From a virus (taxonomy: Duplodnaviria; Heunggongvirae; Uroviricota; Caudoviricetes), in the IMG/VR virus record IMGVR_UViG_2974644367_000001, positions 10,237-74,236 of that record: 64,000 nucleotides of DNA. One strand, 5' to 3'. Positions 4,627 through 63,756 of this stretch are shown piece after piece (the first letter of the stretch is position 1; the number at the start of each line of letters is the position of its first letter). Under the pieces are notes generated by a model, which was given only the letters and a program-made list of their open reading frames with translations, had not been told where the DNA came from and did not search any database. The translations under genes and the position numbers were made by a program.

Positions 4627-4998
4627 ATGGCTTACGCTGGCTACATTAAAACAGGTACACGTGAAAAGCTGATGGACATCGTACTGTGGGAACAGATTTC
4701 TTCAAACGGTTTTAGCCGTGAATCTGTAGCCCCTGCTGCTGGTCTTGATTACGAAATTGGCGACCTGTTAAAGGCTGATGGTACTAAAGCTACCGCTGCC
4801 GCTGACATCTACGGTGTCTGCCTGAACAACTTCAAAGCTGCTGTTGGTCTGACTACTTCAGGTCAGGTGAACATCACCATGATTGTTCGTGAAGCAGAAC
4901 TGAAAGCAGGTGGAATCAATCTGGCTGGTATGACCGAAGCTGCTGTGGCAACTGCCCTGAAAGCTAAAGGTATCATCCTTGTTCCAACTGGTAAATAA
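4627..4998 (+). CDS. Putative head decoration protein (gpD-like)
   Basis: A 123 aa Ala/Gly-rich protein located between the protease-scaffold and the major capsid gene, the same position as lambda D. Confidence 0.45.
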   Translation: MAYAGYIKTGTREKLMDIVLWEQISSNGFSRESVAPAAGLDYEIGDLLKADGTKATAAADIYGVCLNNFKAAVGLTTSGQVNITMIVREAELKAGGINLAGMTEAAVATALKAKGIILVPTGK

Positions 4999-19930: not shown

Positions 19931-19955
19931 GGGACTCTTCGGAGTCCTTTTTATT
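19931..19955 (+). terminator. Intrinsic terminator (GGACTC-UUCG-GAGTCC followed by T5)
   Basis: A perfect 6 bp stem, a UUCG tetraloop and a T-tract. Confidence 0.7.
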
Positions 19956-42557: not shown

Positions 42558-43418
42558 ATGTCTAAAGCTGAATCTAAACTTGTTGTTCTGAAGCCTCTGT
42601 CTGTAAAAGGCAAAGAAGTTCCACGTTATGCTCTGAAAGATGTGTGGTTCTACTTCCTGAACACCATGCCTCAACTGAACAAGGGTAAACGCGAAGACGC
42701 AAGTTTCCCGATGAAGAACCGCACCTTCAGTGTTTCTGTTCTGGCTGACCGTAAGACTGCGGTTGCGTTCAAGAAGAAGTTCTCTGATTGTAAAATCGAG
42801 ACCGTTGACGCTGAAGAGTTTGAAGAGAAGTTCAAGTGTGAGCCACCTTTTGAAGCTGAAACTTACAGCATTATCAAACTGGCTCGTCACGCATCTTACC
42901 CTGACGGCTCGTTCTTCCTCGGTGCTCATGGTCTGGACGTGTTCGTACTGGAAGGTCGTAAACCAGTTGGCGTTCCGATGAAGAAAATCAAAGCCAAGGC
43001 TCACGCTGACCACGAAGAGCGCAAGGATTATGACGGTATCGTTCCTAATCTGGCTATCGGTAACGGTTCATTTGGTACTATCATCTGTGAAGAGTATACT
43101 TATACCTTCGAAGGTGCTCAGAAAACCAAACCGATTCACCAGCAGGTTTACATCTCTGACTTGGTAGCTTACGAAGGTGGTTCTTCTGTTGACCGTAACC
43201 TTGAAGCTGATGAACTGTCAGAACTTGGTTTCGATGAACCTGTACAGAGTGGTGAAATCATCGAAGAAGAAGCGAAAGGTGCATCTTCTGAGAAGTCTTC
43301 AAGCAAACCTTCTAACGATGGTGACGACGATTCTGATGACGGTGACAACGACATCCCTCAGTATGGTGATGACGATGATTCCGACGACGATGATGATGTT
43401 CCGTTCAAAACCGAATAA
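42558..43418 (+). CDS. Putative ssDNA-binding protein (T7 gp2.5-like) with an acidic C-terminal tail
   Basis: Position after the primase-helicase under a strong promoter. The acidic tail ends in DDDDDVPFKTE. Confidence 0.5.
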   Translation: MSKAESKLVVLKPLSVKGKEVPRYALKDVWFYFLNTMPQLNKGKREDASFPMKNRTFSVSVLADRKTAVAFKKKFSDCKIETVDAEEFEEKFKCEPPFEAETYSIIKLARHASYPDGSFFLGAHGLDVFVLEGRKPVGVPMKKIKAKAHADHEERKDYDGIVPNLAIGNGSFGTIICEEYTYTFEGAQKTKPIHQQVYISDLVAYEGGSSVDRNLEADELSELGFDEPVQSGEIIEEEAKGASSEKSSSKPSNDGDDDSDDGDNDIPQYGDDDDSDDDDDVPFKTE

Positions 43419-50638: not shown

Positions 50639-50914
50639 ATGGGTAAGACGATTCGCCGTAAGAACTTGAAAGGTAAGGAAGACTGGTTCCAGAATCCAGA
50701 CCGTAAAGAAGGTCATGGTCACGCTGTGTATCATGGTGATAAATTGAAACGCATGAGTGGCATCTCTTCAGGTGTCAAAGACCGTCAGCATGAGATTCAA
50801 CGCCAGACGAATCGTCAACTCTCTGCCAAAGCTATGACAGGTGAAGATGTCGTTCCAGACAACACTGACCGTCACAGCAAACGCTTATCAAACCAGTGCT
50901 ACACGTACTCGTAA
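50639..50914 (+). CDS. Small basic protein
   Basis: ATG with an AAGGA ribosome-binding site. 91 aa, rich in Lys and Arg. Confidence 0.4.
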   Translation: MGKTIRRKNLKGKEDWFQNPDRKEGHGHAVYHGDKLKRMSGISSGVKDRQHEIQRQTNRQLSAKAMTGEDVVPDNTDRHSKRLSNQCYTYS

Positions 50915-50921
50915 TAATCAA

Positions 50922-50944
50922 GGGACTCTTCGGAGTCCTTTTTC
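50922..50944 (+). terminator. Intrinsic terminator (UUCG hairpin family)
   Basis: GGGACTCTTCGGAGTCCTTTTT. Confidence 0.7.
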
Positions 50945-50955
50945 TTTATATAAAA

Positions 50956-51025
50956 CAACAACTTATAAATAAATGAAAAATTATTGAAAATAGTTGTTGA
51001 CCCGAATAACCGATTTCTATACTAT
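50956..51025 (+). promoter_or_regulatory. Sigma70-like promoter (TTGACC 50997 - TATACT) flanked by an 8 bp inverted repeat CAACAACT / AGTTGTTG
   Basis: The right arm of the palindrome overlaps the -35. Confidence 0.5.
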
Positions 51026-51075
51026 TACTCACGTCAACAAGACATACGAAAACAATATATTAAGGAAACCGAGAA

Positions 51076-52185
51076 ATGACTACTGAAAACACTAACGTCG
51101 AAACTGAAGTTAAAGATGCAGCTAACACTCAGACTGATGCAAAAGCCGAAGCACTGCTGAAAGCCGAAGCCCTGAAATCTGCAATCACCGATGCTGTAAC
51201 CGCTCCTAACGGTGCGACTCTTGATGAAATCGTTGTGTCTGCACAGGCGACTCAGAAAGCTATCAAGCCTGTTCTGGCTGGTCTGGTTGAAGATGGCATT
51301 ATCGGTTTTGCAAAGGGTGTTACCCGCGCTACTGATAAGGGTGACGGTAAAGTTGGTAAAGCACAGCCTGTCTACATCGACATCGCACGTGTTAACACCT
51401 TCCTGACGTTCCCTGAACTGCCACAGGTTGTTACTCAGAAACTTGGTAGCATTCTGAAAGTTCGTCCAGCGATTAACCAGCGTGAGACTGAATCACGTCT
51501 GAAGAAAGAGCACTTGAACGGTGTTGCATCTGCTACTCAGCACGTCTTCCGTATCGGTGTATACGATGATAAGACCGCTGTCATTCTGGATGGTAACAGC
51601 CGTATCGCAGCTTACAAAGCTGGCAACCTGTTCTTCGAGAACGATGATGAGACTCCAGTAATTCTGGAAATCTACAAACTTCGTGACGTTGAACACGAAA
51701 AAGAACTGTACCATGAGTTTGACTCCACTTTCTCTGTGATGTCTTCTCGTGACTTGGACTTCCAAGCGAAAGCCGAACTCAATACGTCTGCTGCTCCAAC
51801 CAGCAAGACCATGAACAAATCTATCAAGTCTGCGGTATCATACGCAACTGGTAAAGCTGTGAAGGTCGGTGTAGGTATCTACGATGATGTCAAAGATGAG
51901 ATTTTCTTCCTTGACGGAATCCTGAAAAACTACGAACCAGAGAAAGCAATCGACGGTGCAATCCTGAGTGCGATGCTGAAGCTGACCAAAGAGAAGGGTA
52001 TTGAAGACCCAATGGAAGACTTCATCGGTGATGTTCTGCTGTCACTGACCGAAGGGCAGGGTGTTCTGGTTAAACCTGAAGCGACTCTGGCTGCTGTACT
52101 GCGTGTTAACACTAACCGCACTTACGGTTCAGCACGTGCAACGACCATCTTTGATGCAATGGTTGAAGACTTCGAAGCACGTTAA
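51076..52185 (+). CDS. ParB/Srx-fold (DUF262/DGQHR-like) protein (putative)
   Basis: The VILDGNSRIAAY motif resembles the DGQQR/DGQHR motif. It is a single-gene unit between a strong promoter and a terminator. Confidence 0.35.
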   Translation: MTTENTNVETEVKDAANTQTDAKAEALLKAEALKSAITDAVTAPNGATLDEIVVSAQATQKAIKPVLAGLVEDGIIGFAKGVTRATDKGDGKVGKAQPVYIDIARVNTFLTFPELPQVVTQKLGSILKVRPAINQRETESRLKKEHLNGVASATQHVFRIGVYDDKTAVILDGNSRIAAYKAGNLFFENDDETPVILEIYKLRDVEHEKELYHEFDSTFSVMSSRDLDFQAKAELNTSAAPTSKTMNKSIKSAVSYATGKAVKVGVGIYDDVKDEIFFLDGILKNYEPEKAIDGAILSAMLKLTKEKGIEDPMEDFIGDVLLSLTEGQGVLVKPEATLAAVLRVNTNRTYGSARATTIFDAMVEDFEAR

Positions 52186-52203
52186 TCTGTAGCTATCCTA
52201 ATC

Positions 52204-52227
52204 GGGACTCTTCGGAGTCCCTTTTTA
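52204..52227 (+). terminator. Intrinsic terminator (UUCG hairpin family)
   Basis: GGGACTCTTCGGAGTCCCTTTTT. Confidence 0.7.
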
Positions 52228-52239
52228 TTTGAGGTGAAT

Positions 52240-52500
52240 ATGTCTCGTCAATATCTGTTTTACAAACCACGTGAAAGTCTGTACTATGTCATGTCAGGTG
52301 ATGCCAAGATTAAAGGTGATGATGGTGAATGGTATAACGGTAAAGTCTACGTTGCCATTGACGGTTGCCAGTGCTATTGCCGACCTGACCACATGTTTGA
52401 AAAAGATAAATGGGAGTCACTAACACATGAACAAGCCAGAGAATACTACCGAAAATATTACGGAGACCTCAACACCCCACGTGGTTCAAATATCATCTAA
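52240..52500 (+). CDS. Hypothetical protein (track start is GTG at 52234)
   Basis: ATG with a GAGG ribosome-binding site. It has a CQCYC cysteine cluster. Confidence 0.45.
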   Translation: MSRQYLFYKPRESLYYVMSGDAKIKGDDGEWYNGKVYVAIDGCQCYCRPDHMFEKDKWESLTHEQAREYYRKYYGDLNTPRGSNII

Positions 52501-52618
52501 TGGGCGTGTATGGTTCGAGTACCTTGATGAGATGCGTGAACGGACATACCTTGAATTTGAAAGTGAAAGTTCAGCACGAAGAGGTTTAAGAATCTATTGC
52601 AATTCTCTTGCTGGTTAG
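52427..52618 (+). CDS. Hypothetical small protein overlapping the previous gene out of frame
   Basis: ORF with GGAG upstream. The 74 nt overlap makes it uncertain. Confidence 0.25.
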   Translation: MNKPENTTENITETSTPHVVQISSNGRVWFEYLDEMRERTYLEFESESSARRGLRIYCNSLAG

Positions 52619-52666: not shown

Positions 52667-53179
52667 ATGTACTCAGAGTTCGTTGCAGTAGTGATGTCAG
52701 TTGTCAATCTTGACTTTCAAGACCGTGAGGACTTTCTGTTCAGTCACCAGTATGACCGTGAGAATTCAAACTGGATGAAACTGAACCATGAAGGGTTGAC
52801 CCGTAAAAAGATTATCGCTCGTTATTTTCCTTATTACACAGTTGATAATCTGTATGAACATTGCTTTTTCAAGAACTTTATCACGGTGCTGAATGAAGAG
52901 TTTGGTTTGACCAAGAATCACCAATTCACTTTAGGTCATCATATACCACTTAATAAAGGTGGTGTACATCATGTAAGTAACTGGTTCATCCAGACGAAGA
53001 GTGACAACCAACGTCAAGGAGATAACCTTCCAGACTCTGAACTGATGAGTTATGACGAACAGGTTGATTACCTCTTTGAACACCTTGTGAAGCACTCTAC
53101 AATCAATGGTATGCAGAGTAAACGATTCTGCCAATACGCTTTACGATTCTCAGGAGTGTACAATGAAAGCAGTCTATAA
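52667..53179 (+). CDS. HNH nuclease
   Basis: LGHHIPLNKGGVHHVSNW...N motif. Confidence 0.55.
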   Translation: MYSEFVAVVMSVVNLDFQDREDFLFSHQYDRENSNWMKLNHEGLTRKKIIARYFPYYTVDNLYEHCFFKNFITVLNEEFGLTKNHQFTLGHHIPLNKGGVHHVSNWFIQTKSDNQRQGDNLPDSELMSYDEQVDYLFEHLVKHSTINGMQSKRFCQYALRFSGVYNESSL

Positions 53180-63288: not shown

Positions 63289-63756
63289 ATGATTCAGGAA
63301 ACTATCGTAGTAAACATCAATGACCTGTCAAGCAAAGTGGCATACGTTGCTGATGTTGTAAAAGCTCAGTTCTCAGGCCGTATTTTCCGTGCTGTCAACG
63401 TAAAGAAAGATGGTGCGCTCCGTGAATACCGTGCTCTGACTGGTGTTTCCAAGCATGTAAAAGGTGCTGGTTCAACAACCGCACACAAACCTGAACTGCT
63501 GACCATCTATGACATGGGTCTGGCTTCAACTCTCGGTGCAGAGGGTATTCAGGCCGCTGGCGCTCCTTACCGTTCATTCAACATGGAAACAACTCTGATG
63601 CTGGAGTTTGTAAAGGGCGACAAGAAAACTACTTACGTCTTCATCGACGAAGCAACTAAATCTGAAATTGCTGATGCGAAAATCAAAGCTGCTGTTGACG
63701 CAAGCTCAAGCATTACCAATCAGTCTGTTGCAATCCTGCTTGGTGCTCTGAAATGA
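63289..63756 (+). CDS. Hypothetical protein
   Basis: First ORF after the promoter. Confidence 0.45.
   Translation: MIQETIVVNINDLSSKVAYVADVVKAQFSGRIFRAVNVKKDGALREYRALTGVSKHVKGAGSTTAHKPELLTIYDMGLASTLGAEGIQAAGAPYRSFNMETTLMLEFVKGDKKTTYVFIDEATKSEIADAKIKAAVDASSSITNQSVAILLGALK

Follow-up and report, generated by a model that had tools for sequence, protein, structure and literature searches.

The DNA analysed here, referred to below as the window, is a stretch of 64,000 nucleotides of IMG/VR record IMGVR_UViG_2974644367_000001 (record coordinate = window coordinate + 10236). It was 100% identical to the genome of Erwinia phage vB_EamM-M7 (HQ728263; hereafter M7), a Felix O1-like member of the genus Kolesnikvirus in the Ounavirinae. 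The gene under study, gp078, lies in M7 between nrdA-nrdB-grx-gp076-gp077 upstream and gp079-gp082-prs-nadV downstream. It had been singled out in an earlier note, made from the letters alone, as an insulated open reading frame (ORF) behind a promoter and a palindrome, and the coordinates and length given there for the ORF were correct. The gene was found in all 36 matching Kolesnikvirus-type records, with 92.7-100% nucleotide identity, and its product is called a "putative helicase" in SE5, SB18, SPARTY and PMBT37 and a "hypothetical protein" in the others. Structure prediction, taken jointly with the mechanism proposed below, points with moderate confidence to a stand-alone, highly diverged member of the ParB/sulfiredoxin (Srx)-fold superfamily whose body is DndB/DUF262-like. 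The features of the locus are collected in Table 1.

Table 1. Features of the gp078 unit and predicted domains of its product, in window coordinates (aa, amino acids; nt, nucleotides; L009, a metagenomic relative whose protein, P0002, is 73% identical to gp078).
Feature	Position	Strand	Remarks
Predicted upstream intrinsic terminator	50920..50949	+	Stem AAGGGACTC, loop TTCG, stem GAGTCCTTT, T-run; -12.4 kcal/mol, z -3.6
First inverted repeat, reported in the earlier note	50956..50999	.	CAACAACT at 50956-50963, AGTTGTTG at 50992-50999, loop 28
Candidate extended -35/proximal UP-like motif	50986..51001	+	GAAAATAGTTGTTGAC; includes the right arm of the first inverted repeat
Second inverted repeat, missed in the earlier note	50994..51040	.	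TTGTTGAC at 50994-51001, GTCAACAA at 51033-51040, loop 31
Predicted sigma-70-type promoter	50997..51025	+	TTGACC-N17-TACTAT; hexamers 9/12
Conserved block at predicted transcription start	51033..51047	+	GTCAACAAGACATAC; 13/15 identical in L009 (GTCAACTGGACATAC, L009:2765-2779)
Shine-Dalgarno sequence	51062..51066	+	AAGGA; 9 nt before ATG; conserved in sister phages
gp078 coding sequence (AEJ81337.1)	51076..52185	+	369 aa
N-terminal extension, aa 1-116	51076..51423	+	Kolesnikvirus-specific; absent from all homologues of 243-341 aa
Predicted ParB/Srx-fold domain, aa 117-220	51424..51735	+	Q135-R136 at 51478-51483; D172-R176 (DGNSR) at 51589-51603
Predicted C-terminal all-helical domain, aa 224-369	51745..52182	+	Seven helices in the model; aligns across the family
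Predicted downstream intrinsic terminator	52204..52229	+	GGGACTC TTCG GAGTCCC, T-run; -13.4 kcal/mol, z -3.1

The full-length AlphaFold2 (AF2) model of gp078 had a predicted local distance difference test score (pLDDT) of 63, and residues 1-116 were unreliable, their fold being unassignable; the model of residues 114-369 reached 80.5. Foldseek comparison with the PDB gave no match at E <= 1e-3, and six of the eight best matches were named ParB, Noc, sulfiredoxin or ParB-like, the other two being Atu1540 chains. Against BFVD, 16 matches were obtained at E <= 1e-3, with members of the protein's own family and cyanophage proteins coming first. To E 0.03 this list includes DndB-like, GmrSD N-terminal, ParB-like nuclease, ParB/Sulfiredoxin and Noc-like proteins, and the alignments span both domains over 250-330 columns, as in DndB-like proteins. 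The predicted model has the alpha/beta core of the ParB/Srx fold with a G-x-x-R at a strand-helix junction: DG closes off a strand, and xSR opens the helix that follows. The same site holds GERR in ParB, GGCHR in sulfiredoxin and DGQQR in GmrS (PMC4619093).

Since some ParB/Srx-fold proteins have DNase activity at this same active site (PMC4619093), gp078 might, in the manner of Osa, Arabidopsis sulfiredoxin or the Pyrococcus ParB-like nuclease, be a nuclease or NTPase-nuclease with host or replicating DNA as its substrate. D172 and R176, both conserved, could serve in catalysis, and in a cluster for nucleotide metabolism (nrdAB, grx, prs, nadV) the breakdown of host DNA would feed precursor pools. 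However, no nuclease motif or domain was detected, the family pairs with methyltransferases and not with nucleases, and the activity is rare and debated within the fold; this reading is very unlikely. In line with the earlier note, no nuclease domain is fused to the protein, as its C-terminus is all-helical and matches no nuclease family.

Searches at the sequence level recovered none of these superfamilies. Scanning with Pfam gave no family for gp078 at E <= 10 and none for six homologues at E <= 1, while NCBIfam and PADLOC scans of gp078 and six homologues gave no ParB, DGQHR or DUF262 match. Membership in the hidden Markov models (HMMs) PF02195 (ParBc), PF14072 (DGQHR) and PF03235 (DUF262) was thus not found. 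Only chance matches (T-cell receptor, PsbQ, S20) came from PDB sequences searched by phmmer and by two profile searches. When the family was aligned by hhalign with the canonical N-terminal (CTPase) domains of ParB from B. subtilis, M. xanthus and T. thermophilus, the probability was 0.1%, and the alignment with a DUF6551-like protein of cyanophage S-RIM2 was not significant. The suggestion of the earlier note that gp078 is a ParB/Srx-fold protein resembling DndB and DUF262 therefore holds for the fold, by Foldseek, and for the motif, but not for HMM membership in ParBc, DUF262 or DGQHR.

The relatives of gp078 are few. An exhaustive HMMER search over 1.84 billion representative proteins returned seven proteins at E <= 1e-3, which, except for P0002 (357 aa), have 243-280 aa and cover residues 133-354 at most, some of them only to about residue 260. 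Word-indexed homologue searches yielded 2, 4 and 8 proteins. The combination of tblastn and hhalign added two Felixounavirus paralogues (270 aa, SP116-type; 279 aa, IME338-type) and gp121 of Rhizobium phage V1VFA-S, and hhalign linked the family to Mydovirus BIS47_111 (probability 96%, E 2e-9). A search for related loci with the homologue P0003 as query found none. Among PHROGs, gp078 corresponds to the full-length model of phrog_25847 (E 1e-254) and the Felixounavirus homologue P0007 to phrog_2615; the two cross-match weakly and are both without annotation. PHROGs record neither this mutual link, nor the fold, nor the methyltransferase neighbourhood described below. As judged from the predicted models, the gp078 family is a branch of the ParB/Srx fold that is invisible to the HMM libraries searched.

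Conservation was assessed in an alignment of 11 family sequences, in which R136, D172, R176, Y212 and G351 were invariant and R141, L147, G173, G183, L185, S217 and D280 nearly so, giving the family pattern QR...DG[NHY][ST]R...YxxFDS. The DGQQR/DGQHR-like motif VILDGNSRIAAY pointed out in the earlier note (residues 169-180) is present, and its DG..R is conserved across the family together with a QR pair. What defines the DGQHR and GmrS families is a QR pair together with DGQ[HQ]R, the latter aligning to the sulfiredoxin motif GGCHR (PMC4619093). In the gp078 family, the pair N-terminal to the pentapeptide is Q135-R136, with R in 11 of 11 sequences and Q in 9 of 11. The pentapeptide itself reads DG[NHY][ST]R, or DSHAR in one member, so that D, G and R are kept and positions 3-4 differ from DGQHR/DGQQR. 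The FxxxN motif of the DGQHR and DUF262 families was not found; at its place stands Y212-x-x-F/Y-D/N-S217, with no N four residues past F.

Residues 7-42 of the Kolesnikvirus-specific N-terminal extension make up an acidic helix rich in Ala, and residues 44-76 gave sub-threshold matches to winged-helix families (HTH_69, E 0.06; DUF3489, E 0.11; HTH_45, E 0.3), which makes a winged helix at residues 44-105 possible. The isoelectric point (pI) is 5.0 for the whole protein, 4.8 for the extension and 4.3 for residues 1-45.

Two functions that have been attached to gp078 were not upheld by these data. The label "putative helicase" (GenBank MK770412, MK759884, OK483342 and PP810247), which was taken over from Salmonella phage ST-3, appears to be a misannotation that has spread, since gp078 has neither a Walker A motif nor a match to a helicase family (Pfam, NCBIfam) or fold (Foldseek). 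The one Walker A candidate, GDGKVGKA, was rejected, as it has no S/T and is not kept in P0002. The other function, a partition factor, had been offered in the earlier note. Compared with the canonical CTPase clamps ParB, Spo0J, Noc and KorB, gp078 lacks GERRxRA, a ParB-type C-terminal dimerisation domain and profile similarity. No ParA was found near the gene, whose neighbours are nrdAB, grx, prs and nadV. A ParB helix-turn-helix (HTH) domain is taken to be absent from the lack of a Pfam match, the HTH region having been left out of the hhalign comparison, and no parS-like repeats were noted, although no systematic search for them was made. The ParB-like fold and the copied label are the sole support for a true partition ParB or a helicase. 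Set against them are the missing ParA, the lytic lifestyle of this myovirus, the hhalign result for the ParB N-terminal domain and the absence of Walker A and helicase matches, and both readings are effectively refuted. gp078 is neither a partition protein nor a helicase, nor is it fused to a nuclease.

The gene neighbourhood of the relatives offers a different lead. In 8 of 12 lineages, a gene for an N6-adenine DNA methyltransferase is adjacent to the gp078-family gene. A D12-class enzyme lies upstream in SP116-type Felixounavirus (P0007/P0009; DPPY motif) and next to P0005, and downstream in BIS47/P0010, next to P0012, P0013 and P0015, and next to P0004; the IME338/EC106 paralogue has an N6_Mtase-like enzyme with an NPPF motif upstream. 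This two-gene module, in either order, was seen at L004:3994-5702, L017:2418-4220 and L010:2414-4334 and in L019, L022, L025, L030 and L152; its hosts are Felixounavirus, Mydovirus and contigs of gut or wastewater metagenomes, and some Felixounavirus genomes (EC106) have two of these pairs. A more distant DUF6551-like protein (weak DUF6551 match) precedes Dam in cyanophage S-RIM2. No adjacent methyltransferase was found for gp078 itself, nor for L009, P0003, P0008 and V1VFA-S, and tblastn with six methyltransferase queries detected no homologue in the complete M7 genome. A link to DNA modification, one of the options in the earlier note, receives support from the relatives that adjoin N6-adenine methyltransferases, but M7 itself has no such enzyme.

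Among the known systems closest to gp078 are the DndB/DGQHR (PF14072, TIGR03187) and DUF262 (GmrS, BrxU, SspE, DndI) proteins. They share with gp078 the ParB/Srx fold followed by a helical region, the QR pair upstream of hhDGxxR at a strand-helix junction, and a link to DNA modification, which for gp078 comes through the gene neighbours of its relatives; DndB, too, has no fused nuclease. They differ in that gp078 matches neither PF14072, PF03235 nor PADLOC models, has DG[NHY][ST]R in place of DGQ[HQ]R and YxxFDS in place of FxxxN, and is carried by a lytic phage instead of a defence island. Where DndB belongs to a dnd/ssp sulfur-modification operon, the partner of the gp078 relatives is a Dam-type methyltransferase. 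Unlike GmrSD type IV restriction systems, gp078 has no HNH/DUF1524 nuclease domain, and the nearby gp081 has no Pfam or PDB match.

A second comparison is with phage ParB-fold accessory proteins (PF02195+PF01555 fusions, ParB-DUF6551 and activators of 5mYOX), which are likewise orphans without ParA and linked to a modifying enzyme. ParB-fold-methyltransferase fusions are enriched in phages, and CTP or ATP is bound by DUF6551 fusions (PMC12704722); ParB176 is a separate phage protein that activates a thymine dioxygenase (5mYOX) on double-stranded DNA (PMC13229309). These proteins are detectable with PF02195, whereas the gp078 family is not. Moreover, the methyltransferase of the gp078 relatives is a separate adjacent gene, D12-class or NPPF-type, and not a fusion; the N-terminal extension is unique to Kolesnikvirus; and M7 itself has neither a methyltransferase nor a dioxygenase.

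The organisation of the locus was then evaluated for its bearing on expression. Both predicted terminators flanking gp078 consist of a GC-rich hairpin and a U-run on the coding strand; they had been described in the earlier note as two UUCG terminators bracketing the gene, and both fold stably and are followed by T-runs. The upstream one, which is annotated as a terminator in the phiEa21-4 record, would end the nrdAB-grx-gp076-gp077 transcript. Their 16-nt core GGACTCTTCGGAGTCC occurs in nine exact copies in the window against 0.03 expected: those flanking gp078 are at 50923 and 52205, and the others at 19932, 29596(-), 31529(-), 46635, 56150, 61211 and 63957, all on the coding strand of the local genes. 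In four of the nine (19932, 31529, 50923 and 56150) a TTGAC promoter (TTGACC or TTGACA) follows within 30-60 nt of the core. As the same arrangement recurs at 19932, 56150 and, on the minus strand, 31529, placing a TTGAC promoter behind a terminator is a habit of the M7 genome. The Felix O1 genome is reported to have host-type promoters and many rho-independent terminators (PMC3185647). L009 shows the same order of terminator, promoter, gene and terminator, although its downstream terminator is a different one, and the P0003 gene in contig L027 is likewise preceded by a terminator and the same promoter type.

The unit is insulated, as the earlier note had it, in so far as terminators stand on both sides, but not with respect to the genes that follow. 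The ribosome-binding site (RBS) and start of gp079 lie within about 10 nt of the downstream terminator with no promoter-like site in this stretch (52204-52243), so that gp079-gp082, and possibly prs/nadV, need read-through or internal promoters. Among these neighbours, gp081 (52667-53179) had been taken for an HNH protein; it matched no Pfam family and no PDB sequence, its family, PHROG 3500, is of unknown function, and its stretch HHIPLNKGG...N resembles HNH by eye only. A sub-threshold match of gp080 (52427-52618) to the anti-CRISPR family AcrF31 (E 0.11, 13 bits vs a cut-off of 27) is probably noise. On the other side, gp077 (50639-50914), 5' of the upstream terminator, encodes a DUF5499 protein similar to T4 gp55.5 (E 3.5e-11); it is missing from L009, where gp076 runs straight into the terminator.

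The predicted gp078 promoter has sigma-70-type hexamers at a spacing within 16-18 nt, and its position is conserved in six Kolesnikvirus genomes. In L009, about 15 nt after the terminator, it reads TTGACC-N17-TAGTAT despite a diverged spacer. A strong promoter of its own, with TTGACC at 50997, had been claimed for the gene; the promoter and its coordinates are confirmed, but the hexamers alone are not strong, and any strength would come from the extended motif upstream of them. This 16-mer, GAAAATAGTTGTTGAC, was found in at least 120 IMG/VR stretches, part of the matches being coding sequence for a conserved WKIVVDHP peptide. Its 13-nt core, AATAGTTGTTGAC, was examined in 126 unique contexts; in 77 of them TAnnnT follows at a spacing of 16-18, and these 77 are consequently read as promoters. 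The core precedes the gene of P0003, a 28%-identical homologue on an unrelated uncultured phage contig (L027:1231-1246), and a second M7 copy lies about 70 nt upstream of the 27-tRNA cluster (L013:4713-4729, outside the window).

Several copies of the promoter per contig were observed in L035, L061, L064, L070, L075, L077, L098, L104, L122, L123 and L139, each copy preceded by an inverted repeat TGTTGC-N7-ACAACAG. These contigs come from uncultured phages related to one another, and CAACA occurred at most 52 nt upstream in 42% of promoter-like contexts vs 8% of the background. When L035 and L027 were compared with cultured phages by megablast, nothing matched.

The block GTCAACNNGACATAC, where transcription is predicted to start, is conserved between M7 and L009, although the promoter spacer, the flanks of the block and the remainder of the leader have diverged. 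Its first 8 bases are the inverse complement of the -35 region at 50994-51001. As a repeated site the block was discarded, being unique in the window. An RNA element in the leader was rejected as well: Rfam gave only a sub-threshold snoRNA chance match, and the 5' untranslated region was unstructured on folding.

Codon usage of gp078 was exceptional. Its fraction of optimal codons, 0.73, ranked second of 63 ORFs (mean 0.55, standard deviation 0.076) and was comparable to that of the major head protein. Because of the flanking terminators, the unstructured leader, the good RBS and this near-capsid codon bias, we infer that gp078 is an abundant protein. Besides the major head protein, the top ranks include a head-decoration-like ORF (4627-4998) and the ORFs 63289-63756 and 42558-43418 (PHROG 2267 and PHROG 3877, function unknown), of which the latter two are probably also highly expressed. 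Relative to phiEa21-4, the ratio of nonsynonymous to synonymous substitution rates (dN/dS) of gp078 was 0.076, with 0.14 in the N-terminus, 0.06 in the ParB-like domain and 0.035 in the C-terminal domain. The gene is under strong purifying selection.

The earlier note had interpreted a perfect 8-bp palindrome centred on the -35 element as an operator. Both arms and the TTGACC at 50997-51002 are present, but the centre of the palindrome lies about 20 bp upstream of the -35, which is overlapped by 3 bases of the right arm only. When the 161-nt spacer (29% GC) was shuffled, 13% of the shuffles contained a perfect inverted repeat (8 bp, loop of 3-40) at least as good. The left arm is changed to CAGTAACT (2 of 8 bases) in five Ea21-4-type genomes in which the right arm is unchanged, and it is absent from L009; the half-sites are neither both conserved nor co-varying in relatives that keep the gene. 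The invariant right arm is part of the common promoter motif GAAAATAGTTGTTGAC, and the simplest reading is that it is conserved as an extended -35 with a proximal UP-like element. On this evidence the palindrome is judged to be a chance occurrence and not the operator of gp078.

The second inverted repeat shares its central arm with the first and brackets the core promoter. It is invariant in the six genomes, while L009 keeps only a 6-bp core, GTTGAC/GTCAAC. Two or more such 8-bp inverted repeats were present in only 2.8% of the spacer shuffles. This low frequency, and the three CAACAA-type elements at 50956, 50992 (inverted) and 51033, would fit an autoregulator, a modified form of the operator idea, that binds CAACAA/TTGTTG repeats at its own promoter through a winged helix or the ParB domain and thereby represses or tunes transcription of its gene in a nucleoside triphosphate (NTP)-dependent manner. 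A precedent is DndB, which has the ParB fold and shuts down its own operon in an ATP-dependent way (PMC12704722). Conservation of the second repeat and of the start block, partly even in L009, and the repeat that precedes the same promoter motif in the uncultured contigs also agree with this possibility. Nevertheless, the left arm carries uncompensated changes in the sister phages, L009 lacks it, and the central arm belongs to a common phage promoter motif that also occurs at the M7 tRNA cluster and in contigs not shown to encode a gp078 homologue. In addition, the half-sites of a dimeric operator do not typically lie 28 or 31 bp apart, and the codon bias and insulated layout indicate high output instead of tight repression. 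DndB-like autoregulation is for these reasons an unlikely explanation.

High expression could also suit an abundant, acidic early anti-defence protein, that is, a decoy, a dominant-negative subunit or a shield of the phage DNA against GmrSD, BrxU, SspE or DndB-type systems. The low pI, especially of residues 1-45, and the strong-expression architecture agree with such a function. So do the fold shared with the DUF262 domains of BrxU and DndI and the fact that relatives accompany methyltransferases, which are classic anti-restriction tools of phages; anti-defence roles have been suggested for phage ParB-fold fusions (PMC12704722). On the other hand, no PADLOC or anti-defence model was matched, nothing points to an interaction with a host system, and DNA mimics have pI values far from 5. 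Retention in every member of the genus and the low dN/dS value indicate a core function rather than an arms-race accessory, and we regard the anti-defence role as improbable. The autoregulator, the anti-defence decoy and the nuclease are each individually less likely than an NTP-binding ParB/Srx-fold protein of the kind described next.

In the proposed mechanism, gp078 would be transcribed alone from a host sigma-70-type promoter strengthened by GAAAATAGTTGTTGAC, the anatomy of which is seen and the activity presumed. A pocket formed by Q135/R136 and D172-G173-x-x-R176 would bind a nucleoside triphosphate in the way of the GxxR arginine of ParB, sulfiredoxin, DndB and GmrS, and the nucleotide state would gate the association of gp078 with DNA or with a partner. 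DUF6551 and DndB-like proteins bind CTP, ATP or GTP, and ParB-fold proteins no longer bind NTPs once the arginine of the P-motif is mutated (PMC12704722). For most of the other lineages, the adjacent N6-adenine DNA methyltransferase would be this partner. Kolesnikvirus would have lost, or never had, this enzyme and would have gained the 116-residue N-terminal module instead. Possibly a winged helix, this module may supply DNA or partner binding, substituting for the methyltransferase partner. We infer NTP binding through R176, D172 and Q135/R136, nucleotide-gated association and high abundance.

Several observations weigh against this interpretation. No sequence model reaches any ParB-clan family, whether in Pfam (E <= 10), NCBIfam, PADLOC, PDB or hhalign searches. 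The Q and H of DGQHR are replaced by N and S, and the third motif, FxxxN, by YxxFDS. The winged helix is a sub-threshold hint only, and the acidic character of gp078 is atypical of a DNA binder. Furthermore, mutations in the NTP site of 5mYOX-associated phage ParBs left their function intact (PMC13229309), so that an NTP switch is not to be assumed for gp078. A more specific model, which we put forward as speculative and doubtful, is that the gp078 family would provide a separate-subunit, nucleotide-gated loader or activator of Dam-type methyltransferases, comparable to ParB176. gp078 itself would then be a derived, methyltransferase-independent, abundant switch bound to DNA by its winged-helix-like module, for example marking, protecting or organising replicating DNA.

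These results correct two readings of the locus, as the wrong helicase label is removed and a common motif of strong promoters accounts best for the apparent operator. It is becoming apparent that ParB-fold proteins serve as general NTP switches far outside chromosome segregation, and large surveys of ParB start from the PF02195 HMM, which misses the gp078 family. As it was found by structure prediction only, this branch would widen the range over which the fold is known to occur among lytic phages. The usual pairing of the family with a separate Dam-type methyltransferase suggests that DNA-modifying enzymes of phages may recruit ParB-fold partners. In this respect, gp078 of M7 would be a natural uncoupled case: it has no methyltransferase, is probably abundant, and is kept genus-wide under strong purifying selection in Kolesnikvirus, a genus used for the biocontrol of fire blight.

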